Shown: positions 2,901 to 15,098, numbered from the stretch's first letter. The stretch: DNA of 64,000 nt from an uncultured Candidatus Saccharibacteria bacterium (GCA_964585065.1 CAZPCB010000001.1:80034-144033); one strand, 5' to 3'. The notes: a model not told the origin generated them from the sequence alone. Numbers and translations: made by a program.

Positions 2901-4427
2901 TTATCTTGCATAGTCAATAATACGGGTTTCTCGTATTAAAGTTACTTTAATTTCACCAGGATATTTAAGCTCTTCTTCTATCTTAAGAGCAATTTTGCGA
3001 GCCATTTTTTTGGCTTGTATATCATTGATTTTATATGGTGTCACAAATACGCGAATCTCACGGCCAGCATTAATGGCATAACTTTTATCTACTCCATAAA
3101 AAGCATTAGTAATAGCCTCCAATTCCCCCAGTCTCTTGATATAATTATCCACAGAATCACGTCGAGCCCCAGGTCGAGAAGCTGACAGGGCATCCGCTGC
3201 CTGTACAATGCGAGATTCTAGGCTCTCATACGGATATTCCTCATGATGAGACTGCATAGCCTTGATTACCTCTTCTTTAATACCATATTTACTGAGTACG
3301 GTGCGTCCAATTTCCACATGAGTACCCTCAACCTCATGATCGAGAGCCTTCCCAATATCATGAAAAAGACCTCCCATTTTTGCAATCATCACATTAGCCC
3401 CGAGTTCTGCCGCAATAGCTCCCGCCAAATGAGCAACTTCCACACTATGCATAAGTACATTTTGTCCATAACTAGTTCGGAATTGCAATCGTCCGAGTAT
3501 ATAGGTGAGTTTAGGATCTATACCCGTAATACCGGTATCATATAGAGCTGCTTCACCAGCCTCTTTAATCTTTTGTTGTACTAATTCTTTTGATTTAATG
3601 ACAAATTCTTCAATACGAGCTGGTTGTATACGACCATCTTCAATCAAAGCCTCTAGAGCAAGCTTAGCAATATGCCTCCGTATAGGGTCAAAACAAGATA
3701 AAACAATACTATCAGGACTATCATCAATAATAACCTGTACTCCTGTTGCATTCTCGAGAGCCCGTATATTACGCCCCTCTTTTCCAATAATACGTCCCTT
3801 TACCTCTTCGCTGTCTATTGCCACACTTGCAGTATTAAATTCAGCAGATTGACCTTGAGCATATTTTTGCATAGCAAGAACCATAATATTCTTGGCTTTT
3901 TGTTCCAATTGATTATGCCTAATTCCCTCTAAACGCTCTATTTGTAATAATAATTCTTCATGAGAAGTCTCTTCTACCTTTTCGAGAAGCTCAGACTTAG
4001 CTTGTTCGGTATTAAGTCCAGCAATATGCCCAAGTTCAGTGATTTGTTTTTGTTTGAGCTCTTCAACCTCTTGATACAAATCCTTAATTCTCTCCCCCTT
4101 TGTCTTGAGTTCCAATCTATGATTTTCTAATTCCTGTACTTGTTGTTCTAAATCCTTTTCCCTTCTCAAAACACTTTCCTCAAGGAGAACCGCTGTTTTC
4201 CTAATTTCTGAGGCTTCGGCTCTGGCCTTATCTTTTAGTATTTCAGCCTCTTGTTCGGCTTCTTTTTTGAGTTTTTTAGATTCTTCTTCGAATATTGCTT
4301 GTAGCGATTGAATTTTAGCTTCTTTTGAATTGATTGATCTTCTGACAATGATTAATCTGAGACCATATCCTATACCAGTACCTATTATTAAGCTTGAAGT
4401 CAACCACAATAATGAAATTGTAGTCAT
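2901..4427 (-). CDS. rny: Ribonuclease Y.
   Basis: N-terminal TM helix, coiled-coil region, KH domain 'GRIIGKEGRNIRALENATG' and HD domain 'HSVEVAHLAGAIAAELG...LFHDIGKA'. Confidence 0.9.
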   Translation of the reverse strand: MTTISLLWLTSSLIIGTGIGYGLRLIIVRRSINSKEAKIQSLQAIFEEESKKLKKEAEQEAEILKDKARAEASEIRKTAVLLEESVLRREKDLEQQVQELENHRLELKTKGERIKDLYQEVEELKQKQITELGHIAGLNTEQAKSELLEKVEETSHEELLLQIERLEGIRHNQLEQKAKNIMVLAMQKYAQGQSAEFNTASVAIDSEEVKGRIIGKEGRNIRALENATGVQVIIDDSPDSIVLSCFDPIRRHIAKLALEALIEDGRIQPARIEEFVIKSKELVQQKIKEAGEAALYDTGITGIDPKLTYILGRLQFRTSYGQNVLMHSVEVAHLAGAIAAELGANVMIAKMGGLFHDIGKALDHEVEGTHVEIGRTVLSKYGIKEEVIKAMQSHHEEYPYESLESRIVQAADALSASRPGARRDSVDNYIKRLGELEAITNAFYGVDKSYAINAGREIRVFVTPYKINDIQAKKMARKIALKIEEELKYPGEIKVTLIRETRIIDYAR

Positions 4428-4551
4428 ATAATATATTATGAGATAGTAAATTAAGTGTATTTTGCATATACATCACTATTATAGCATAGTGACAAGGTAA
4501 ATGCGAATTGTAAATGAGAGGGGTGAAATAATAGTGAGCTCACATAAACAC

Positions 4552-4590
4552 AAAAGCTCCTATCAATATAATTGTTAGGAGCTTTTGCTA
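4552..4590 (-). terminator. Rho-independent terminator after the DEAD-box helicase gene.
   Basis: 8-bp stem AGCTCCTA/TAGGAGCT with a 13-nt loop, followed on the minus strand by a T-run. Confidence 0.5.
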
Positions 4591-4610
4591 GTGAGTCTAA
4601 TTATCTTGGA

Positions 4611-5870
4611 TTAATACTTTTTTACAAAAGTAAGAGCCCAACCAATTTTATTCCCTCGTCCAGTTCTACCAATTCGATGAATATAATCTTCTTCAGTTCG
4701 AGGTAACTCATAATTGATAACATGAGTAATATCCCCAACATCAATTCCACGAGAAGCCACATCGGTTCCAATCATAATCCAAGCCTCATTGTTCTTGAAT
4801 TTCTTCAACGCAATTTGTCTATGCATTTGAGTCTTGTCACCATGAATAGATTCAACATCAAAACCATGTTGTTGTAAATCTCGATACAAATTTTCTACCG
4901 CCATTTTGGTCTCACAGAAAATAAGAACTTTTTTCACTTCATCTTTATTCAAGATATCCATCAATAAGTCCATTTTATTATCATTACGAGTAACAGGTAC
5001 AATATCTTGATGAACATTATTACTAGATACATTGCTAGATAACAATACATTAACTGGATTTACAAGGAAAGTCTCCATCAATTGACGAGTTTTCCCTTCA
5101 GTTGTAGCAGAGAAGAATAATTTTTGAGTATCTTTTGGAAGTAATTCGAGAATATATCGAATTTCATCAATAAATCCCATATCAAGCATTCGGTCAACCT
5201 CATCTAATACGATGGTTGAAAAACTATCCATATGAATAGCCTTACGATTAATCAAATCTTTGAATCGTCCAGGAGTTGCAATGATAAAATGATTATGCCG
5301 AGATAATCGGAACATTTGCTTACGAATAGGAGTTCCCCCAATACAAACAGTACTATAAATACCCTGACCACGATTAGTGATTTTGTGAAGCTCTTGTTCA
5401 ATTTGAAGAGCCAATTCTCGGGTAGGAGCAAGTATCACAGCTGACTTTTTAGGATCTAAAGTCATACTATGTAATAGAGGAAGCAAGAAAGCTAAAGTTT
5501 TACCAGTACCAGTACCAGCAAGTCCAATAACATCATTTCCTTCCATTACAGGTTTAATAGCCTGATCTTGAATAGGAGTAGGATTAATCATACCCTTTTC
5601 AGTAAGAGCAGCATCAATCCATGATGCAAAACCAAAGTCTTTAAAAGTATGAGTGATTTTGGTCTCAGCCTCTGGAAGAGGTTCAGCAACCTTCACAAAT
5701 AAAGAATGGTCAAGTTGTTTAGGACCAGATTTTTTACCATATCTTCGGCCACCACCTCCGCCATAGCGAGGTCGTCCGCCAAAAGAATCACGAGAAGAAC
5801 TATTATTATATCGAGAAGATGAGTTAGAGCGATTAGAAAATCGACTACTACTATTATTAGAGTACGCCAT
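4611..5870 (-). CDS. DEAD-box ATP-dependent RNA helicase with an N-terminal Ser/Arg/Gly-rich low-complexity tail. Start is probably the internal Met 'MAYSNN...' at 5870 rather than 5912.
   Basis: Q-motif and 'AGTGTGKT' (motif I), 'LAPTRELALQI' (Ia), 'DEVDRMLDMGF' (II, DEAD), 'SAT' (III), 'HRIGRTGR' (VI). N-terminus 'SRFSNRSNSSSRYNNSSSRDSFGGRPRYGGGGGRRYG'. Confidence 0.85.
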   Translation of the reverse strand: MAYSNNSSSRFSNRSNSSSRYNNSSSRDSFGGRPRYGGGGGRRYGKKSGPKQLDHSLFVKVAEPLPEAETKITHTFKDFGFASWIDAALTEKGMINPTPIQDQAIKPVMEGNDVIGLAGTGTGKTLAFLLPLLHSMTLDPKKSAVILAPTRELALQIEQELHKITNRGQGIYSTVCIGGTPIRKQMFRLSRHNHFIIATPGRFKDLINRKAIHMDSFSTIVLDEVDRMLDMGFIDEIRYILELLPKDTQKLFFSATTEGKTRQLMETFLVNPVNVLLSSNVSSNNVHQDIVPVTRNDNKMDLLMDILNKDEVKKVLIFCETKMAVENLYRDLQQHGFDVESIHGDKTQMHRQIALKKFKNNEAWIMIGTDVASRGIDVGDITHVINYELPRTEEDYIHRIGRTGRGNKIGWALTFVKKY

Positions 5871-6016
5871 ACAAAATATGATTATGAATATGATATGGAA
5901 TATAGATACCAATCATATACATACTTGTATAAACGCCATCTATGACCACATTGAAAAAGATTATAGCATAGATTATATTATTTGTCAAGTTATAATAACA
6001 CCAAAATTAGGTGCGG

Positions 6017-6080
6017 GTATTCTGTCCTCCCTTGGAGGAGGTGGATTGAGCTAATTCCCCTCTCGAGGGGTGTACAGCTT
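6017..6080. repeat. GC-rich REP-like structured repeat, copy 1.
   Basis: 'ttctgtcctcccttggaggaggtggattgagctaattcccctctcgaggggtgta' shares its core with 6447-6520. It contains the local hairpin CCTCC-cttg-GGAGG and the CCCCT-ctcg-AGGGG hairpin. Confidence 0.45.
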
Positions 6081-6192
6081 TGCTGGACGGGGTTGGGAGT
6101 ATTCTGTCCCTAAAGTTACTCCTCCACCTGTCTGATTGACAGTAAGTATAAATTTTGATATTTTACTTATGTCCACATATTGATAATAGCAA

Positions 6193-6378
6193 ATGACCAA
6201 AACAATAACCCCTCCTCATCCAGATCACGACAAAACAGCTGATCAATCATCTACTCAATTCAAAGAAGATGTCGGTATCGAAGAAAATCCAGATTATAAA
6301 GACTGGGAAGAATGGGAAGAACTAGAAAAAGAACTTAAAGAGGGTAAATACGATCTAAGCGTAATGCTTATGAATTAG
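6193..6378 (+). CDS. Hypothetical small acidic protein (61 aa).
   Basis: ORF bracketed by the two REP-like repeats and followed by a terminator. 'DYKDWEEWEELEKELKEGKYD'. Confidence 0.35.
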   Translation: MTKTITPPHPDHDKTADQSSTQFKEDVGIEENPDYKDWEEWEELEKELKEGKYDLSVMLMN

Positions 6379-6397
6379 AAATTCAACAAAACAACCA

Positions 6398-6427
6398 ACC
6401 CCGGCACATTGTCGGGGTTTTTATTTA
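6398..6427 (+). terminator. Rho-independent terminator.
   Basis: 'ccccggcacattgtcggggtttttattt'. Confidence 0.45.
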
Positions 6428-6446
6428 CCCTAAAATTTACAATGTT

Positions 6447-6520
6447 TTCTGTCCTCCCTTGGGGGAGGTGGCACGGAGTGCCGGAGGTGGATTGAGCTAA
6501 AATTCCCCTCTCGAGAGGTT
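6447..6520. repeat. GC-rich REP-like structured repeat, copy 2, with an inserted hairpin.
   Basis: 'ttctgtcctcccttgggggaggtggcacggagtgccggaggtggattgagctaaaattcccctctcgagagg'. The conserved 18-mer GGAGGTGGATTGAGCTAA is shared with copy 1. Confidence 0.45.
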
Positions 6521-6596
6521 GTATCTTTGATGAAGGGGGGGGATTTTACCTACCTCAAAAACTCCTTCAAAACAGCTGGATCACTCTCGTATATTC

Positions 6597-7517
6597 TTAT
6601 AGAAGATTTAACGAAGAAGCTTCACAACTACTAAAATCAAGAGTAACAAAATAATTCTCACCTTTCTCCGTTGTAAATGAATGCGCAATATCTATCTCTT
6701 GGTCTAAAATATAATTAATAAATTCATTACTACAGTACTCTTTAACCATCAAATCCTTAAGGAATTCTGTAGATAATTGACTAGAATCTATATTTTGTAT
6801 TTCATATGTATATTGAATAGAACCAGATTGCTGCTCCTTAATTCCTAACAGAGTAATATTATCGTTCAATTTACTCGGAAAAGGTCTATCATTTAATATT
6901 GACACCATAGCAGCAAGCTTACTATCTGTCTCTTCACTATACTCCTCTTCTGACGATGAGTCCAAATACATCTCATCCTCTAATGCACTCCACTCAAGAA
7001 AAAAAGTCACCGATAATATACCAAAAGCAATCAAGAAAAAGATAATCCACCCCTTCGTATCAAAATACTTATATACAGGCTTATGTAATGTTGCTACAAA
7101 GTCCTTATTCCTCAATATCTGAATCAAAACAACCCAAGAACATATAAGGAATACAAGCACCCCAACATATACCCAACTCGTAATACTAATTGTATTTTCA
7201 AAAATAATAAACCCTAAGGATATAATACCCATCAATATAATCAATACCTGTAGATACATCCTTATACTACGATCAACCCCAACTCGTACACGATTCCCTA
7301 ATACAACAAAAATACTCGACAAGATAAGAGTTAATATCATATCCGATATCATCACATCAAAAAAATATTGACCAAGCCCATTGGCATATATCCAAAGATA
7401 GAAAGGAGTCACACCCCATATACCCAACCAACCAATTCCAGATATCATAATTCCCATCCATTTCAGAATAGTCTTACTTCTATCTAATTTTTTAGTATCA
7501 ATCGCAACTTCACTCAT
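6597..7517 (-). CDS. Hypothetical polytopic membrane protein with an acidic C-terminal domain.
   Basis: At least 6 predicted TM helices in the N-terminal 200 aa. C-terminal 'DSSSEEEYSEETDSK'. Confidence 0.45.
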   Translation of the reverse strand: MSEVAIDTKKLDRSKTILKWMGIMISGIGWLGIWGVTPFYLWIYANGLGQYFFDVMISDMILTLILSSIFVVLGNRVRVGVDRSIRMYLQVLIILMGIISLGFIIFENTISITSWVYVGVLVFLICSWVVLIQILRNKDFVATLHKPVYKYFDTKGWIIFFLIAFGILSVTFFLEWSALEDEMYLDSSSEEEYSEETDSKLAAMVSILNDRPFPSKLNDNITLLGIKEQQSGSIQYTYEIQNIDSSQLSTEFLKDLMVKEYCSNEFINYILDQEIDIAHSFTTEKGENYFVTLDFSSCEASSLNLL

Positions 7518-7597
7518 ACTATTTTATATATGTATATATCATAACACCATAATCATAGATATCATAATATAATTCATGAAGATAGTAGTATTTTAAA

Positions 7598-7682
7598 CCC
7601 CTTTTAGTACGGTGTACTTGTCTGTTGCGAGGAGCATTCGCTCGAAAATAGTTTCCGCTATTCGTCCTTTGACGAGGCTTTG
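7598..7682. repeat. 85-bp direct repeat, copy A (about 80% identical to 8746-8831).
   Basis: 'ccccttttagtacggtgtacttgtctgttgcgaggagcattcgctcgaaaatagtttc...gaggctttg'. Confidence 0.5.
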
Positions 7683-7962
7683 TATTTGCCTATTACATTT
7701 GAAAGCTTTGTGGAAAATGGTCTGTGCAAATTTTGCACTAACCACTTTTTAATGACATTATATCCCCAACCTTCTTTTTGAGCTATTGCAAAAAATGCAA
7801 CAACTGAATCTTCTCTAGCTTATCCACATTTGCAATATGCATTTTTTACATATTGCTTTTTAATCAAACTCATACCTATCGTATACTTGACAAATAGCAA
7901 ATATTATGTTACTATAAGGTTACAAATGAGTGGACTAGGAATACCTGGGCCACTCATTTTTA

Positions 7963-8703
7963 TTACGGAAATTCTTTATATCCATATCCTTTCACTCTAT
8001 TCCCCTTACGTCTAAATTTTGACTTTAATATAGAAAAAGGAGGCTTATTTTTATACTGATCTTTATCTAAACAAAATCTACTAATTGGATATGCTACAAG
8101 ATCAGCAATTTGATGACCATTAATATTTTTTGTTTTACCAATAAACTCAATTTTTTGAATATGTTTTTCAAAATCATCTTGAGATACATACCGTTTTCGC
8201 CCTTATCGAAAAACATTATACACATTTATTAAGTCATTATTAGACTTATTATCTCTCGCTTCAATTGAGATAATCCCCGTACCATTATGCTCTTGAAGAA
8301 ATTTAATAAATCTTTCAATAATAAACGAAAATGAAAGTTCATATGGATCACTTGGATCATTATATATAGAAGTTAATTTATCTTTACGAATACAACTAGA
8401 GATAATGGTATAATCTAAATCCTGCATTAATATATTCATATCTTCTATAAAAACTTTTCTTTTCAAAGGGTTGAGTAAAGATTTAAAATCATTTTTTGCC
8501 TTACGAATTTCATAAGAATGTAATATGGTATTTTTATTATTAAAATGATTAATTTTAAGCTTATTTACTTTAGCAATAACTTGCTCCTCATAATATACTT
8601 TTTCAAAAATACACCCTACCAAAGTAAAAATAGGATATTGAATATCATACTTTACTAAGTTATGATCTCCAGATTCATCTAAAAATATAATATATTCTTT
8701 CAT
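7963..8703 (-). pseudogene. DUF3800-family gene interrupted by a single in-frame TAA at 8203-8205. N-terminal part is 8203-8703; in-frame continuation is 7966-8202.
   Basis: N-terminus 'MKEYIIFLDESGDH' (DESG motif). After the TAA the same frame continues for 79 aa: 'GRKRYVSQDDFEKHIQKIEFIGKTKNINGHQIADLVAYPISRFCLDKDQYKNKPPF...' with the DUF3800-like QxADL motif. The combined length of about 246 aa is family-typical. Confidence 0.55.
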
Positions 8704-8745
8704 AAATACATTATATCAAACCCAATATCTATTAATCAATAAATG

Positions 8746-8831
8746 CCCCCCTTTTAGAACGGTATAATTCTCTGTAGCGAGGAGCATTTGCTCGAAAATA
8801 GTTTCGTGACCAGCCGCTTAACCAGGCTTTG
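8746..8831. repeat. 85-bp direct repeat, copy B.
   Basis: 'ccccccttttagaacggtataattctctgtagcgaggagcatttgctcgaaaatagtttc...caggctttg'. Confidence 0.5.
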
Positions 8832-8886
8832 AGTGAATTTAATTGGACTTTACTTTTTGACATAAGGAATTTTTAGTCATATACTA

Positions 8887-8915
8887 TTGACAAAATTAAG
8901 AAAATGTGCTACTAT
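8887..8915 (+). promoter_or_regulatory. Sigma70-type consensus promoter.
   Basis: -35 TTGACA (8887-8892), 17-nt spacer, -10 TACTAT (8910-8915), followed by the ATG at 8942. Confidence 0.5.
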
Positions 8916-8941
8916 TTTTCCTGAAACTGATCTTGCTATCC

Positions 8942-9178
8942 ATGGCATTTCAATCCTCAACGATTGTAAAGCGTCACGTACCAGTAACTCACCCCACCCC
9001 TCTCGAAGCGGAAGCCGAGTACATCGCAGCCAATCAAGAAAGGTGTGAGGTCGCTGATGACCTCGATGCAGAGCAAGAAGTACCGGAGCCGATTGATGAT
9101 AGACCTGAAGATTGGGCTGCCTTTGAAAGAGATATCGAGCAAGCCCAATACGACCTTGAAGGATTATTCCTTGAGTGA
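8942..9178 (+). CDS. Small, highly acidic hypothetical protein (78 aa) on a GC-rich, probably horizontally acquired segment.
   Basis: 'MAFQSSTIVKRHV...EAEAEYIAANQERCEVADDLDAEQEVPEPIDDRPEDWAAFERDIEQAQYDLEGLFLE'. Local GC is far above the roughly 30% background. Flanked by a consensus promoter and a strong terminator. Confidence 0.45.
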   Translation: MAFQSSTIVKRHVPVTHPTPLEAEAEYIAANQERCEVADDLDAEQEVPEPIDDRPEDWAAFERDIEQAQYDLEGLFLE

Positions 9179-9199
9179 CACCATCGCCCATAACCTCCA

Positions 9200-9231
9200 T
9201 CCCCCGACACCTTGCCGGGGGATTTTTTTTA
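9200..9231 (+). terminator. Strong rho-independent terminator.
   Basis: 'cccccgacaccttgccggggg' followed by 8 T. Confidence 0.6.
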
Positions 9232-9471
9232 TTACTTAAACAATTTTGAAAACCAGCCGAATAAACTTGGGACTTTGCCCTTGCTCAGTTCTCTGGTATG
9301 TTTGAAAATAGGTTTATTATACCCTATATTATATTTGATTTTTCGCTTAACTCGAGAAGGGCTGAGAGATTGAATTGCAGAAATTCCCGTAGCCTTCTTT
9401 ATCCTACGCTTCAGCTTTGTCACTCCGAGCAATGTTTTGAGAGATGGTTTGCGATAGCGGAAGAGTTTCAT
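9232..9471 (-). CDS. Hypothetical small basic protein (79 aa).
   Basis: Lys/Arg-rich ORF, last gene of the minus-strand operon downstream of the 335-aa gene. Confidence 0.3.
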   Translation of the reverse strand: MKLFRYRKPSLKTLLGVTKLKRRIKKATGISAIQSLSPSRVKRKIKYNIGYNKPIFKHTRELSKGKVPSLFGWFSKLFK

Positions 9472-9488
9472 AGGTGATTGTGTGATTA

Positions 9489-9764
9489 TTATACCATTTT
9501 AATAGTTAAAATATCATCTATCATTTTCTTTGGAATACTAGATGGGATTTCACTTTTAGACTCTTTTATCCTTAAAAAAAGATCATAGATTACTGATTCT
9601 ACTATAGAAACTAGAATAATTGTAATTGGCTTACACAGTCTTCTCTGATCACTTGAAGACGAAGAATTAAATGCATCATATAATACAGCAAGTACTTCAA
9701 GATTATAAATAATATTATCACCATGTGAGAAATTCCATATAAATCCTGACTTCACGGTAAACAT
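9489..9764 (-). CDS. Hypothetical protein (91 aa).
   Basis: ORF in an operon arrangement 8 bp after the 335-aa gene. No recognisable motif. Confidence 0.3.
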   Translation of the reverse strand: MFTVKSGFIWNFSHGDNIIYNLEVLAVLYDAFNSSSSSDQRRLCKPITIILVSIVESVIYDLFLRIKESKSEIPSSIPKKMIDDILTIKMV

Positions 9765-9771
9765 ATCCTAA

Positions 9772-10779
9772 TTATTTAGATATCAAATCAACAAACCTCC
9801 TCACTTTCCCTTTTTCCCAGTCCATAATTTTGGCATATTTCCCCTTATGTTTAAGTGGTCGATTATATTTACATCCTTCACATTCATATTTTTCTATTTT
9901 CTCAGGAGTATATCCATCAATTCTATTTTCTGAGGGTATTATAGTGCTTTCATTATGGTTACAACTCATTGGGATTACATATCTCAAGCCATCCATTTGA
10001 AAAATATTCCAGCTAATTATAATAGCAAATTTTTCTTGTAACTCATTATTTGGTTTTTTCTTGAATTTATCTTCATAATAATCGATAAATGAGTATAAAA
10101 GATTTTCTCTTGCAAGCAAAATATTATCTCCCTGCCATTCATAGCCATAACTTGCTTTAAAAGCTTCTTCTGCCCAATGCAACCAATCTTTTTCATCTTC
10201 GGTATATTTGGATACCACTTGTAATTTAATATCTAAAAAACCTACTCGATTCTTAATCGGTATCAAGTGTCCTTCTTGAGCTGTAGGGTCATATCTACTC
10301 ACAATATACGGAGCCTCTCCACAAGTAATTTCTAGCTTTAATTCTTTGATATATTTTTGCCAATTATGCTTAGTTATGGAATAAATATCCACTGATTTAT
10401 TCATTTGCTTCACTACTGTAAGTGGAGTAAAGACTTCAGCTTTATCTTTGGTACGATATAATTGTTCTTCTTTACTTTTAGAGGCACGAGGTTGAATCAG
10501 GAGATTACCTTTTCCAGTTATTAACTCTGGCTTTATAGGTTTTGTCACACCAAATTTCTTTTTATCAAATTTTTGACTTTCATAAGCATCTGTAGCCCAG
10601 ATAATTCTGCTTTTTGTTATATGGCCTTTTTCAGAATTACTAAGCTTTTCTGTTCGCTGTTTTCTCAGAAGGTTGATAATTTTTTCACTGGGATAATGGA
10701 GTAATAATATATCCAAAATAATCCTCTTGTCTCGAAGAGTATTTTCTAAGATATCAATATTTTTTTGTGCCCCATTCAT
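9772..10779 (-). CDS. Hypothetical 335-aa partner of the helicase-methyltransferase fusion. Carries a degenerate methyltransferase N-terminal motif but no NPPY.
   Basis: Start is 17 nt after the stop of the 1433-aa ORF. 'AEVFTPLTVVKQMNKSV...LEITCGEAPYIV' resembles gamma-class MTase motifs X and I, and echoes 'QIFTPKHVVKMMVNSL' in the big protein. No catalytic (D/N)PP(Y/F). Confidence 0.45.
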   Translation of the reverse strand: MNGAQKNIDILENTLRDKRIILDILLLHYPSEKIINLLRKQRTEKLSNSEKGHITKSRIIWATDAYESQKFDKKKFGVTKPIKPELITGKGNLLIQPRASKSKEEQLYRTKDKAEVFTPLTVVKQMNKSVDIYSITKHNWQKYIKELKLEITCGEAPYIVSRYDPTAQEGHLIPIKNRVGFLDIKLQVVSKYTEDEKDWLHWAEEAFKASYGYEWQGDNILLARENLLYSFIDYYEDKFKKKPNNELQEKFAIIISWNIFQMDGLRYVIPMSCNHNESTIIPSENRIDGYTPEKIEKYECEGCKYNRPLKHKGKYAKIMDWEKGKVRRFVDLISK

Positions 10780-10796
10780 AAGTTTAATATCACTTA

Positions 10797-13700
10797 CTAT
10801 AGGTGGTTTTCAATAAAATCAATTTCTTTTTGGTCTAGGCCATATTTTTTGTATAGCTGCTGATCAATTTCAGGAATAGACTTTGACCAATCTATATCTG
10901 ATTGAGAAGTAAAATCTTGATCTAATATTACATATCCAAAAGAAGATCTTCTATTAGGTTCTTGTAATAATAAAAAAGCAAAAAAATTAGTTTGTGAGTA
11001 TTTGACAAAATTTTCACAATCTTCATCATCATCTGACATAAATAATGAAAGTTTACTCCTTCCAAATGCCGAACCACTAGGAAGTATCTCTATAAGTTCT
11101 TTAGCTCTCAACTTAACATTCTCAATCGTCGGCTTACCCGAAACAAAAGTTTTCTTCGGGTAAGCCGACGTAACAACAACTTTATACTGATCTATATACT
11201 GTTGCCCCTTATTAATTACATTTCTATCTGCCCAAAAAAGCTTAGCTCTTCCTGAAGATCCTGATTTATCGTTAGTGAGTAACTGAATTGCATTATCCCA
11301 ATCTGATTTTTTAAAAGATACTTTTGTAGGGTTCTTCTCTACAAAGTCAGATTCAATTCCAAATACACCTTTTTTAATCCTACTGTTTAATTTTGTACCT
11401 GTTGTTAATTTTTTCCAACTTGAAAAGAAATAAGGATTAGGAGTGAGAGACTGCCAATTTTTTACTTCCACTTCTGCTACATCGTCTGTATATATACGAT
11501 TAGAATACCGATATTTTTCGTGATATTTTGTCATATCACGAAGCACAATAGAAACACCTGCTGATAAGTTAACACTATTCCCAAATATTGGAACAGGGTC
11601 TCTATCCGTTCTATACCAAGCTCTTTTATCAGAGGTACCTTCGTATGCATTTATTAATACCGTATGCCCATCGCTTAATATTTTTTTACCTATCCCTCCC
11701 AGTCTTTCAGGTGCATCAAACCAGCCTCCAAAAGGATAAATAAGACATATATTTTGTGAAATGTTATCAGCCTGTTCCTGGAAATAATAGTATATCCAAT
11801 TTGAATTACCTTGTGTCTGTGTTTGAGATTTACCTACAGTTTCCTGATACGGGGGATTTCCTACTATTGCTGTGAATTTCATATGTTTATCTAGATTAAA
11901 TTGTTCATAGAGTTTGTCTTGGAGAGAAAGACCTTCATCATCTTTCGCATAAGGGATAAGATCTAATTGAGCAAAGTTTTTGGTACTGATGATATGAGCA
12001 TCATCAAAACCAAAGATAAGTGAATTAGTTATAGCGTGCAATACACCAGTTGGGGCAAGTCCATATACCTGATTTTCTAAAATATGTTTTACACAGTCTA
12101 TATCACTACCATATTGACTCCGTGTATTAGTAAAGAGTTTTTTTACAATTTCTGTAATATATAATCCTGACTTCATATACAAATCAATGAAAGTTGTATC
12201 TGTTCGCTTGAATATATCTGGATTATGTTCTTCTAGACTATTTACCATCATTTTAACTACATGTTTAGGAGTAAAAATCTGGTTAGTAGCTTGTGGGGGG
12301 ATAAACTCAAAAATATCTTGTGTACGGTCTTGTAGATAATAATCTGAAAGTTCTGAACGTTTATGCAAAAACTCTTGTACTGATGCATTGAACACATTTT
12401 CATTAAATAGCCCTTCAAAACGACGGCTTTCAATTTGACTAGTTTCTTCATTTTTTGTTTCATATTCAAAGCCATCTCGGAGCTGTCTAAACTCCTCTTT
12501 AGTTATGCTGGTAAGTTCCTGAAATACTTCTTCTGGGATATTCTCGTCAAAGTTATGTAATGTTGTTTTAGAGTCACCATAAGCCATCAAAAAACTGGGT
12601 ATTGTTCTGGAGAATCCTCTGAGACGGTCTCTTGTTTTCTCTTCTTCTGTTTTATCTTTAGGGGCGGGCTTTTCATCTGGTTTTTCTGGCTGATGATAAT
12701 CTGGATCTCCTGGTTGCGGAACTGGATCCGGTATTTTTGCTACAACTTTGGGAAGTTTTTTCTCTAATTCTTTTATAATGACATTGGCCGCATCAGAAGG
12801 TATATTTTTATTACGGAGTTCAGTTGCTACATTGCTTTTAATTGTAGAGACTTCTTTTTCCTCTTCGCTCCCAATTTCTATATATTGCTTATCACCTAAT
12901 AAACCATTAGTAGTGTTAATTATAATATCTTCATTTATATGAATATTATTTTCTTTATCAACCCATATTCGTGGTTTATTTGAGACTTTATTTTTAGTAC
13001 TATCACCTTGTTTACCTCCTTCGTCAGGTGTCATTTTATTAATGATATCCATCACACTTTGAGGAGCTCCAAAAATACCACTAATACTTTCAAATAAGCG
13101 ATTGCTCATAAATCCTCGATTGACTACTTCCTCTGTAATAAGTTTCAAAGGAAGAGTTAATACCTGATTGGCATCGAGTTGTTGCATTCTCCCTTCATCA
13201 TCCTCTGCATACACAAATAATAAATTAATGAGTTCTTGAACTTTAGCTTCTCGTGTGATATTTGTTTTAGCTCCACTTCTATCCGCCATTTCTGCCAAAG
13301 TTTGCAGTATACGATCTGGGGCAAAGTCAAAAACATAACAGTTTTCTTTTGTGTATACTTCTCCTCCGCTCGTTGCAACTTCAAATGGGTTCTGGGCACG
13401 AAAAGCAGTCTGCATATATAATGAAGGGCTCTTACCCCCTTGTAACATCAGCACAGCTGTCCATGAAGGAACAGTAACACCTGTTGTTAACTGACCACAA
13501 GATAACGTAATGGTTTTAGTTTCTAGTGGATGCTTCTCATTATTATGTCCATTTATTGCTGCCCGCACTTCTGCCAGAGCAGAGTTAGTGAGTCTATCTT
13601 CATCACCTTCGCCTGCTGCTAAAATAATAGTATAATCTTGAAAGAAAGGGTGTTCTTGGAGTAATTGCTTCATCAACTTACTTTGAGGTACACCAGGGAG

Positions 13701-15098
13701 TAACCAGAAAGTATGTCGAAGCGATTCGAGAGAGTCTCTATTTGAAAATGGGTATTGATAATTTGGATTAGCTAAATTATCTAAGAAAAGCCTCACTTTA
13801 TCTTCATATACAAATGTATCTTTTCCATTAACTTTGATAACCCTAAAGAATTCTCCTAACTCAAACGCATATTCACTGCCTTCATTTTTTGCTTCTTCTG
13901 CTTTAATTTGCAATGCTCGAGATAATTGATAGGTAAAGATATTGAGCTTTGGTAATGGAGCATATGGATTATTACCATCCTCTATATTCCACTCTGCTTT
14001 AGCATTCTGCTCATCTGTATATGACCAGTTATATATTTGTTTACTATTAAATTTATTACTTGCAAGAGCTTTGAAGGGTGTGCCCGATAAATGGAGTGCG
14101 AAATCATAATTAACAGCCTCTAGAACGCTAAATGAGTGTCTTGTATCTACTCCTTCATGAGACTCATCAATAATTAACACATCCCATTTTATTCCATCTC
14201 CATCTTCTGATTTAAATATCCACTGATTTTTTCTTTTATATGCACTCGCATCCTCTTTTTTGCCTTTTATATCTTGAAGAGATATAAAGTGTACATAATT
14301 TGAATAAATTCCACCCTGACTAAGTTGTTCTTCACGAGTAAGAATACTATCTGAACCAGGAATATCTCTTAGATTTTTTCGAACACTTTCACTAGCAGTA
14401 AATATCCATCTATGTTTATTATCATTTTGACCCGTGTACTTAAAATCAAATTTTTGAAAATCGGTATACCAGCTATCTGCTATAGCTGGTCTATTAGTAA
14501 TAATCAGAACTTTTTTTGCTTGAATATGTTGAGCAAATGAATAGGCCGTAAGAGTTTTCCCAAAACGTGGTTTAGCATTCCATAAAAACTCTGGCTGAAC
14601 ATTGCTATCTACCAATGTATTCTCATAATAAGCAGTGGTTACTTCAACTGCCTGTTGCTGTTCAGTACGTAGTGTAAAGTCAGTAATAATACCCTCTAGA
14701 TTAATTTTGGCGTTTAATTTATAGTTCTCAATGGTTTCAATGATAATGTCTAGATCTGTCTTAAACCATTCTGCCTTTCGATTGGTTAGAGGGTTGATAG
14801 TTTCTTCTCGTTCAATTCCTAATTTTTCTAGTTCTCGATGAATATCATGGTCAGAAAATATTTTCTTGTCGTTTGTGACTGCATTAGTAGTATATAAAAC
14901 TTCATAAGCTACATTACTTGCCTCATGCTGATCAATAATTCTTAGATTATGTCCTTCTCCTATAATATTTAATTTCTTTGTTTGTCCAACCTTTAACCAA
15001 CCCTCATGTGATACGACGTCCAAATGCTTATATACATATATAACTTTTTCTTCAAAAGCTGAGATATTAATATTATCTAAATTATCTGTGGCATTCAT
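10797..15098 (-). CDS. 1433-aa single-polypeptide fusion: N-terminal T5orf172 (GIY-YIG-like) domain, SF2 helicase (DExH), gamma-class N6-adenine DNA methyltransferase, and a C-terminal putative target-recognition region. Resembles Type ISP restriction-modification enzymes.
   Basis: T5orf172: 'VIYVYKHLDVVSHEGWLKVGQTKK...KAEWFKTDLDIIIETIENY'. Helicase: 'KPRFGKTLTAYSFAQ' (Walker A), 'VLIIDESHEG' (motif II), 'LSGTPF' (III), 'QLTTGVTVPSWTAVLMLQ' (V), 'MQTAFRAQNP' (VI). MTase: 'QIFTPKHVVKMMVNSL' (motif X), 'FIDLYMKSGLYI' (degenerate motif I), 'AIVGNPPYQ' (motif IV). Confidence 0.7.
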   Translation of the reverse strand: MNATDNLDNINISAFEEKVIYVYKHLDVVSHEGWLKVGQTKKLNIIGEGHNLRIIDQHEASNVAYEVLYTTNAVTNDKKIFSDHDIHRELEKLGIEREETINPLTNRKAEWFKTDLDIIIETIENYKLNAKINLEGIITDFTLRTEQQQAVEVTTAYYENTLVDSNVQPEFLWNAKPRFGKTLTAYSFAQHIQAKKVLIITNRPAIADSWYTDFQKFDFKYTGQNDNKHRWIFTASESVRKNLRDIPGSDSILTREEQLSQGGIYSNYVHFISLQDIKGKKEDASAYKRKNQWIFKSEDGDGIKWDVLIIDESHEGVDTRHSFSVLEAVNYDFALHLSGTPFKALASNKFNSKQIYNWSYTDEQNAKAEWNIEDGNNPYAPLPKLNIFTYQLSRALQIKAEEAKNEGSEYAFELGEFFRVIKVNGKDTFVYEDKVRLFLDNLANPNYQYPFSNRDSLESLRHTFWLLPGVPQSKLMKQLLQEHPFFQDYTIILAAGEGDEDRLTNSALAEVRAAINGHNNEKHPLETKTITLSCGQLTTGVTVPSWTAVLMLQGGKSPSLYMQTAFRAQNPFEVATSGGEVYTKENCYVFDFAPDRILQTLAEMADRSGAKTNITREAKVQELINLLFVYAEDDEGRMQQLDANQVLTLPLKLITEEVVNRGFMSNRLFESISGIFGAPQSVMDIINKMTPDEGGKQGDSTKNKVSNKPRIWVDKENNIHINEDIIINTTNGLLGDKQYIEIGSEEEKEVSTIKSNVATELRNKNIPSDAANVIIKELEKKLPKVVAKIPDPVPQPGDPDYHQPEKPDEKPAPKDKTEEEKTRDRLRGFSRTIPSFLMAYGDSKTTLHNFDENIPEEVFQELTSITKEEFRQLRDGFEYETKNEETSQIESRRFEGLFNENVFNASVQEFLHKRSELSDYYLQDRTQDIFEFIPPQATNQIFTPKHVVKMMVNSLEEHNPDIFKRTDTTFIDLYMKSGLYITEIVKKLFTNTRSQYGSDIDCVKHILENQVYGLAPTGVLHAITNSLIFGFDDAHIISTKNFAQLDLIPYAKDDEGLSLQDKLYEQFNLDKHMKFTAIVGNPPYQETVGKSQTQTQGNSNWIYYYFQEQADNISQNICLIYPFGGWFDAPERLGGIGKKILSDGHTVLINAYEGTSDKRAWYRTDRDPVPIFGNSVNLSAGVSIVLRDMTKYHEKYRYSNRIYTDDVAEVEVKNWQSLTPNPYFFSSWKKLTTGTKLNSRIKKGVFGIESDFVEKNPTKVSFKKSDWDNAIQLLTNDKSGSSGRAKLFWADRNVINKGQQYIDQYKVVVTSAYPKKTFVSGKPTIENVKLRAKELIEILPSGSAFGRSKLSLFMSDDDEDCENFVKYSQTNFFAFLLLQEPNRRSSFGYVILDQDFTSQSDIDWSKSIPEIDQQLYKKYGLDQKEIDFIENHL

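Follow-up and report, generated by a model that had tools for sequence, protein, structure and literature searches.

The DNA considered here, called the window, is a stretch of 64,000 nucleotides (nt) from an uncultured Candidatus Saccharibacteria bacterium (GCA_964585065.1 CAZPCB010000001.1:80034-144033). An earlier note on one segment of it (positions 7598-8831) had described a gene of the DUF3800 family, split by a single in-frame TAA and bracketed by two direct repeats. The DUF3800 open reading frame (ORF) runs on the minus strand from an ATG at 8703 to the TAA at 8205..8203, and encodes 166 amino acids (aa), which begin MKEYIIFLDESGDH and include the motif DESGD. Beyond the stop the same frame remains open for 79 codons (8202..7960), reading GRKRYVSQDD...HQIADLVAYPISRF...GYGYKEFP and including HQIADLVAYPI, in which a QxxD motif is found, up to a double TAA (7965..7960). 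ORF and translation agree in this with the earlier description. Facing the gene on the plus strand is a small unit (7887-7970), absent from the earlier note and composed of a promoter-like sequence, a hairpin and a U-tract that reaches the DUF3800 stop codons. Repeat copy 1 (7598..7682, minus strand) is located 81 nt before the ATG at 7517 of a gene encoding a membrane protein; repeat copy 2 (8746..8863, minus strand) ends 43 nt before the DUF3800 ATG. Both starts are on the minus strand, as had been noted.

The two parts of the frame match the two ends of one Pfam profile. The N-terminal half matches positions 1-105 of the 149 of PF12686 with 45.4 bits, and the C-terminal half alone positions 128-148 with 18.1 bits, under the cut-off of 21. 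The joined sequence of 246 aa covers the profile end to end (1-148 of 149, 68.4 bits, same cut-off), and nearly all of the 71 homologues found with it measure 239-250 aa, which bears out the full length of about 246 aa proposed before. The motifs reported for DUF3800 proteins, an N-terminal DE and a C-terminal QxxD (PMC7736814), are both in frame (D9 E10 within DESGD, and Q198-I-A-D201) and invariant in an alignment of 28 sequences, QxxD being encoded after the stop. Ten of the 31 invariant columns of this alignment fall past codon 167, and invariant residues in the lost C-terminal part include N193, G196, Q198, D201, A204 and P206. A functional DUF3800 gene would be expected to be an uninterrupted ORF of about 240-250 aa; here the TAA occupies codon 167. 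As read from the sequence, no in-frame restart codon is available to the C-terminal part before its last 10 codons, and the 79 downstream codons cannot be translated on their own. Judged by its sequence, the copy is thus a null allele, with a predicted product truncated at 166 aa and devoid of the C-terminal QxxD block.

Intact, nonsense and deleted alleles of the gene coexist in genomes otherwise about 97-99.6% identical over the segment. Contig L004, colinear with the window, encodes an intact DUF3800 protein of 246 aa (P0001), 99% identical to the joined sequence. Across the 744 nt of the gene L004 and the window differ at three positions, which correspond to D97N, V164A and a TCA (Ser) in place of the TAA at codon 167. 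The gene of L021 is similarly intact, encodes 246 aa and has TCA at codon 167. L001, a metagenome-assembled genome (MAG) labelled Parcubacteria group bacterium ZE-Oct18-75, features an independent deletion of 470 nt in the gene, corresponding to window positions 8041..8510. Because intact, near-identical alleles have TCA, and because a sister genome has lost part of the gene independently, the reading of the stop as a very recent nonsense pseudogenisation, caused by one C-to-A change (TCA, Ser167, to TAA), is supported. The frame past the stop plausibly remains open because the stop is recent, as indicated by only three differences in 744 nt. All four allelic differences found among the window, L004 and L021 (I60L, D97N, V164A and S167*) are non-synonymous and none is synonymous, a pattern that fits relaxed or diversifying selection, in numbers too small for a test.

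Some observations weigh against this reading, and would fit a gene intact in the organism and a TAA introduced by sequencing or assembly. The stop differs by a single base from two intact alleles, and two window-specific substitutions, at 8213 and 8204, are found within 10 nt of each other, the second being 9 nt away from the first. The Logan assembly of run SRR8942238, obtained with another pipeline, is 100% identical to the window over 7,376 nt (11578..4203), TAA included, but this contig may come from the same reads as the window. Against an error stand the agreement of the two pipelines over 7.4 kb, the location of the position outside any homopolymer (TTTCGATAAGGGCG), and the independent inactivating deletion of the sister genome, which denotes that loss of the gene is under way in the population. 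A base error at 8204, judged from assemblies rather than from reads, is unlikely, and the intact-gene explanation as a whole is quite improbable. Programmed read-through or recoding of the TAA, giving a full-length protein, has a next to negligible chance: the downstream frame is perfectly open and family-like, but TAA, rather than being a rarely used stop, is the commonest one (35 of the 47 long ORFs of the window), no suppressor is present among the five tRNAs found, near-identical alleles and orthologues carry a sense codon where conservation of the in-frame stop would be expected, and none of the 71 homologues requires recoding. Of the three readings that had been left side by side, pseudogene, error and read-through, the first is favoured, the second is unlikely and the last is not supported.

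The direct repeats, which had been described as about 80% identical over 85 bp, are real. Their core, 7598-7655 in copy 1 and 8748-8805 in copy 2, spans 58 nt with 90% identity, and similarity reaches about 85 nt. A pattern derived from 29 nt of the core matches the window twice, against no match expected in shuffled sequences, and a profile search of the 64-kb window revealed no copies beyond these two. A scan of the genome collection gave one positive, the related MAG L001, which hosts three copies. Only two chance matches of 22 nt, in high-GC soil contigs, were found in Joint Genome Institute (JGI) metagenomes, and none in viral contigs. The hypothesis of a genome-wide dispersed element was consequently discarded. 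The repeat is also absent from all the other DUF3800 loci examined, and it was ruled out as a general part of a DUF3800 cassette.

The origin of the repeats is revealed by comparison with more distant relatives. In L025 and L026, two of the contigs that carry a homologue of the membrane-protein gene, the repeat is homologous to the upstream region and the start of an intact gene of 133 aa, here denominated gene X, whose protein reads in L025 MLLATGKYTVLKGGYEHTMPLV...PDFILINKK...VDFIEVKY. A query made of the 33 residues encoded by copy 1 retrieved a protein of 158 aa, P0191, beginning MKNRNHITFTQNLIKGRIAETIFERMFLATGNYTVLKGGYENTMPLV and 65% identical to the gene X protein of L025. The translation of copy 1 (7682..7599), QSLVKGRIAETIFERMLLATDKYTVLKG, shares 82% identity with residues 11-38 of P0191; copy 2 (8805..8743) corresponds to residues 20-40, with 81% identity. 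In copy 2 gene X can be followed from an ATG at 8863 to about codon 40 (..ETIFEQMLLATENYTVLKGG), with a frameshift. On this evidence the 85-bp repeats are truncated 5' stubs of decayed gene X copies, of which copy 2 is frameshifted. The coding frame is settled by the intact homologues as frame B (ETIFEQMLLAT..); a small ORF in the alternative frame A (..KLFSSKCSSQQRIIPF*) was considered and rejected, as it exhibits no codon-position bias.

The stubs are cut at or just past a run of G residues encoding K-G-G. Copy 1 is interrupted at GGGG|TTTAAAATAC (AAAAGGGG|TTTAAAATAC) and copy 2 at GGGGGG|CATTTATTG (AAAAGGGGGG|CATTTATTG), and P0190 and P0192, two short proteins from the database, are pieces of gene X in which divergence begins immediately beyond KGG. 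At least four independent stubs (copies 1 and 2, P0190, P0192) end right after the K-G-G codons; the third copy of L001 is cut 12 nt further on. Junctions between modules recur in G-runs of 6-9 bases, at 8746-8751 in the window, at 9165-9173 in L021, and at 398-406 and 989-996 in L004. The G-run is a possible hot spot of recombination.

Gene X may be a small nuclease-like gene of the PD-(D/E)XK type. Motifs of the form PDF...(I/L)VEVKY are visible in its sequences, its Pfam matches to this superfamily are all under threshold (VRR_NUC, E=0.012; PDDEXK_15, E=0.0026; TnsA-like N, E=0.007), and a sequence search of the PDB with gene X gave no match.

The segment delimited by the stubs varies from strain to strain. 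L022 and L023 feature a RhuM-Fic gene, then a single stub, then the membrane-protein gene, and no DUF3800. In L024, similarly devoid of DUF3800, one stub directly precedes the membrane-protein gene, and joins a 5' flank and core of the copy 2 type to a 3' flank of the copy 1 type. These three contigs represent an empty, one-copy arrangement. L021 hosts the intact DUF3800 module and copy 1, but neither copy 2 nor the plus-strand ORF module next to it (window 9193..8752), and the junction is found within a G-run (GGGGGATGGGGGGGGG|CATTTATTG). Because DUF3800 is present in L021 in the absence of copy 2, bracketing by repeats is not obligatory. In L001 a third stub is found in front of a different ORF. 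In the window, a patch of copy 1 differs from the orthologues of L001 and L004, and a near-matching patch, including an insertion of 1 nt, is found in the single stub of L022, which points to gene conversion or allele exchange. Finally, the DUF3800 block (8770..7669) differs from that of L004 at five of about 1,100 positions and the flanking core genes are about 94% identical; the block has therefore been exchanged between strains in recent times.

From these arrangements the repeats are seen to delimit an insertion/deletion polymorphism within a hypervariable restriction-modification (R-M) island. Homologous recombination between stubs, accompanied by microhomology events at G-runs, appears the most economical explanation of their distribution. 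What counts against the details of this reading is that the order of events, deletion or insertion, and which stub is the ancestral one, have to be deduced from five strain arrangements.

The repeats could otherwise be sites of the attL/attR type, at the ends of a small, integron-like cassette whose site-specific recombinase would be encoded at another locus. This would account for the single-copy empty sites of L022 and L024, for the presence of the stub in at least three contexts that differ on the 5' and 3' sides, for the common end point, at the K-G-G G-run, of at least four independent stubs, and for the higher conservation of the 58-nt core relative to its flanks. Empty sites, which in the one-copy arrangement of L022, L023 and L024 are indeed observed, are equally expected from homologous recombination between direct repeats. 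Terminal inverted repeats or attC-like structures, together with a transposase or integrase, would mark a mobile cassette. No inverted repeats were found at the segment ends and no recombinase gene among the ORFs in or near the segment, and the repeat lacks a conserved structure. Moreover, the repeat is clearly the beginning of a coding sequence, the DUF3800 module of L021 has no upstream copy and is joined via plain G-run microhomology, the third copy of L001 is cut elsewhere, and no other DUF3800 locus carries the repeat. An att-type cassette has thus only a small chance of being the right explanation. Of the mobile-cassette boundaries suggested in the earlier note, the role as limits of a segment varying between strains is retained, and the dedicated mobility is not.

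A slimmer chance still is assigned to the possibility that the repeats are functional cis-regulatory elements, such as a shared promoter, an operator or a structured leader RNA, of the genes that follow. It is true that every copy is located upstream of a co-directional gene, and that copies 2 and 3 carry along the upstream region of gene X. Yet each downstream gene has a promoter-like site of its own between repeat and ATG, and the intact DUF3800 gene of L021 has no repeat upstream; on these grounds the earlier suggestion of duplicated promoter or leader elements does not hold. The repeats fold weakly on both strands (z-scores -1.7 to -2.1), the predicted structures differ between copies, RNAalifold on seven copies gave -10.7 kcal/mol with almost no covariation, and Rfam had no family match to the repeats. 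A structured RNA was ruled out on the weakness of the single-sequence folds on both strands and the lack of covariation among the seven copies.

The promoter-like site of DUF3800 (8710..8739, minus strand), located between repeat copy 2 and the gene, has the form TTGATT-18-TATAAT with a TG, and is kept in L021, which is devoid of copy 2. The end of its -10 box is 6 nt from the ATG. Boxes resembling -10 elements are found a few bases before the ATG of both DUF3800 (8710-8703) and the membrane-protein gene (7530-7517), and neither start has a Shine-Dalgarno sequence. Leaderless transcripts are suggested for both genes, because the boxes nearly touch the ATG and no Shine-Dalgarno sequence is present.

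The small unit convergent with DUF3800 features a sigma70-like promoter, TTGACA-17-TACTAT (7887-7915), followed by a single bulged hairpin of about 38 nt (7923-7960) with the conserved loop GACUAGG-N4-CCUGGGC. The hairpin was found in five lineages, represented by the window, L005 (6741-6778), L010 (6739-6776), L027 (3742-3779) and L028 (3725-3763), whose DUF3800 proteins are 41-61% identical to that of the window. The loop is invariant and the stem covaries, with compensatory double changes in 8 of the 14 pairs of the five-sequence alignment. In all, 91% of the cells of the alignment hold a pair, against 33-53% when the partners are slid, and the observed value was reached in none of 500 shuffles. 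A covariance model detected exactly one copy of the hairpin per DUF3800 locus.

Several features suggest that the hairpin belongs to the strand antisense to DUF3800. All the C.A and A.C mismatches of the sense strand become G.U pairs in the antisense strand, where the fold is 3-9 kcal/mol more stable and is then followed by the U-tract. In all five lineages an antisense promoter of the form TTGACA or TTTACA, 17-18 nt, TAnnAT, with 10-11 of 12 matches to consensus, ends 5-7 nt before the hairpin; such promoters arose by chance in at most 57 of 5000 shuffles per lineage. The antisense reading is preferred because of the repair of mismatches by G.U pairs, the more stable fold, the U-tract and the fixed distance of the promoter. 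Promoter, covarying conserved structure and intrinsic terminator, the marks of a small RNA gene, are thus all found on one strand, and the unit 7887-7970 looks like a self-contained gene for an RNA of about 45 nt, convergent with DUF3800 and overlapping the 3' end of its mRNA. Against this, a conserved terminator acting in both directions could be enough to account for the hairpin.

Searches of the whole window with Rfam gave tRNAs and chance-level matches only. At the gathering threshold or at E<=10, no model of the DUF3800 series in Rfam 15 matched the hairpin, either in 7400-9300 or in 7860-8000 (141 nt), and none matched the four homologous loci or 20 loci from IMG/VR. RF02968 (DUF3800-IX) and RF02969 (DUF3800-I) were confirmed to be in Rfam 15, which presumably holds models for all the eleven motifs DUF3800-I to -XI. 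IMG/VR relatives of the protein (L031-L078, 28-38% identity) feature a different, larger conserved element about 10-90 nt after DUF3800. In gene sense it reads AAAAGCGAAAGGCCCC...GGGGCCTAGCGCCGRCCGGG...CCCAATCCATTT and covaries in part; in antisense its C.A mismatches turn into G.U pairs, and a terminator-like hairpin is found at its end. It has no match in Rfam, and promoter scores upstream of it are mixed (mean 7.4, against 6.9 in shuffles).

The observations can be combined into the following scenario. Gene X would have been originally located between the small divergent ORF found upstream of copy 2 and the membrane-protein gene. Its body would have been deleted just after the G-run of the K-G-G codons, leaving about the first 40 codons, and the stub would have been duplicated as the DUF3800 module recombined in. 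The stubs would since have served as homology arms, and the 1.15-kb segment may be gained and lost by ordinary recombination, with no need of dedicated transposition machinery. What travels would be DUF3800 together with the convergent gene for the hairpin RNA of about 45 nt, equipped with its own promoter and terminator. Very recently, a single C-to-A change at codon Ser167 has inactivated the DUF3800 copy of the window. This explanation in its entirety, a nonsense null allele, gene X stubs as homology arms and a convergent hairpin RNA unit, is regarded as very probably correct.

We infer that the hairpin RNA may be the cognate partner of the nuclease-like DUF3800 protein, as a regulator, an antitoxin-like RNA or a substrate; in the scenario above it would be a regulatory or neutralising RNA, acting in an antitoxin- or antisense-like manner. 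A bolder proposal is put forward tentatively, as possible rather than probable. According to it, the antisense RNA of about 45 nt, with its invariant loop GACUAGG-N4-5-CCUGGGC, would be bound, cleaved or sensed by DUF3800 and represent an undescribed RNA class; RNA and protein would form a minimal module, similar to toxin-antitoxin or abortive infection systems, inserting into R-M operons; and, as the larger element of the more distant relatives would be a second RNA in the same position, the whole clade of DUF3800 proteins of about 245 aa would be RNA-partnered.

The surroundings of the segment are rich in fragments and in alternative genes. Between the DUF3800 module and repeat copy 1 are remnants of a RhuM-Fic gene, all from its 5' part (7671..7874, minus strand; 7874..7828 and 7748..7671), which were identified by a tblastn match and by DNA similarity to the RhuM-Fic genes in L014, L015 and L022. 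The membrane-protein gene (6597..7517, minus strand) encodes 306 aa with no family match, and the same gene is preceded by the single stub in strains without DUF3800. On the other side a divergent module (8857..9178, plus strand), absent from L021 as is copy 2, is composed of two tandem consensus promoter-like sites (8857-8885 and 8887-8915) and a small acidic ORF, from an ATG at 8942 to 9178. The promoter-like module of about 33 nt (TTGACAAAATTAAGAAAATGTGCTACTAT), tandemly duplicated in the window (8857-8915, plus strand) and present in L001 (5119-5151), is found in the island in both orientations, driving different small ORFs. A kinship between the small acidic plus-strand ORFs 8942-9178 and 6193-6378 was considered and dropped, the similarity (E=0.2) being not significant.

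The edge of the variable island is anchored by a conserved gene of 79 aa (9232..9471, minus strand), for which 111 homologues were found. A GC-rich hairpin (9201-9221, TCCCCCGACACCTTGCCGGGGGA), located 3' of this gene between A- and T-runs, resembles a bidirectional terminator serving both this gene and the small ORF 8942-9178 that converges on it. In L001, L004, L021 and L024 a duplication comprises both the hairpin and the 3' end of the 79-aa gene. The system found beside the 79-aa gene (window 9232-15098) is of type IIG in the window. In its place L001 and L021 have a type I system, L022 a type III system, L015-L018 a type III system with a KAP NTPase, and L025 an OLD-like nuclease and a Schlafen-like helicase. 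The cargo that follows is equally variable, and includes RhuM, RhuM-Fic, Bro-N, a kinase-like gene and DUF3800. By its gene content the locus is a hypervariable defence island, downstream of an R-M system, in a genome of the candidate phyla radiation (CPR), here assigned to the Parcubacteria. The closest non-identical homologues of the DUF3800 protein (41-61% identity) are mostly encoded inside R-M operons: in the type III systems of L005-L009 and L027 their genes separate Mod from Res, and in the type I systems of L010-L011 they separate HsdS from HsdR. PADLOC had no match for the DUF3800, membrane and 79-aa proteins.

The small ORF 6193-6378 is flanked by a second family of direct repeats (6017-6092 and 6444-6539), about 58-80 nt long and 83% identical, which contain GC-rich palindromes (CCCCTCTCGAGGGG, for example). 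Sequences like these are found at cassette borders in L004, L014, L015, L022, L024 and L025, with Bro-N and RhuM genes between the copies. In L018 (314-2388) the type III Mod gene, 691 aa long in other contigs, is split into ORFs of 238 and 377 aa, and is likely another pseudogene.

A pseudogene and gene stubs are ordinary findings, and the novelty of the locus, which is modest, appears to reside in the small gene for an antisense RNA that accompanies this clade of DUF3800. The locus is of wider interest in that a defence island of a streamlined CPR bacterium turns over quickly, with three allele states of one gene and varied R-M systems and cargo at one anchor point. DUF3800 proteins are widespread in defence contexts, among which type VII retrons and accessory loci of Cas12a2/a3 or Cas13, and the pairing of a protein of 246 aa with a hairpin RNA of about 45 nt and invariant loop offers a simple experimental handle on recognition by DUF3800.

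Genomic islands known as hot spots resemble the locus in the duplicated gene stubs around an indel, the empty sites, the alternative cargo (RhuM, RhuM-Fic, Bro-N) and the varied R-M types. The locus differs from the usual ones because the island is hosted by a reduced CPR genome, and its breakpoints recur at one G-run in the stub. DUF3800 proteins have an RNase H-like fold and ties to mobile elements and defence (PMC7736814, PMC10910872, PMC13594972). As the single-domain proteins of PF12686, the joined protein of the window matches the profile over its full length, has the DE(SG)D and QxxD motifs, measures about 245 aa and is found in a defence context; unlike the DUF3800 genes found inside R-M operons, the copy of the window is interrupted by a TAA and located in variable cargo beside the R-M operon. 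Eleven unrelated RNA motifs accompanying DUF3800 genes have been described; they occur on either side of the gene and on either strand, several have terminators, and no functional hypothesis was given for them (Weinberg et al. 2017, PMC5737381). The hairpin of the window shares with DUF3800-I to -XI, which are found on either strand, a conserved structure, the vicinity to DUF3800 and a Rho-independent terminator. It differs from them in that it matches no Rfam 15 model, RF02969 and RF02968 included, and is much smaller, and in the fixed layout of the unit, which is antisense to the gene, has its own promoter 5-7 nt upstream and ends in a terminator directly at the stop codon. Convergent antisense RNAs overlapping at the 3' end are known from the type I toxin-antitoxin pairs bsrG/SR4 and txpA/RatA of Bacillus subtilis. 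The predicted unit of the window is built similarly: as read from its sequence, a short RNA antisense to its partner has a promoter and a terminator of its own, is convergent with the partner and would overlap the 3' end of the partner mRNA. In contrast to these pairs, the partner is a nuclease-like protein of 246 aa rather than a small membrane peptide, and the overlap may be confined to the terminator hairpin.

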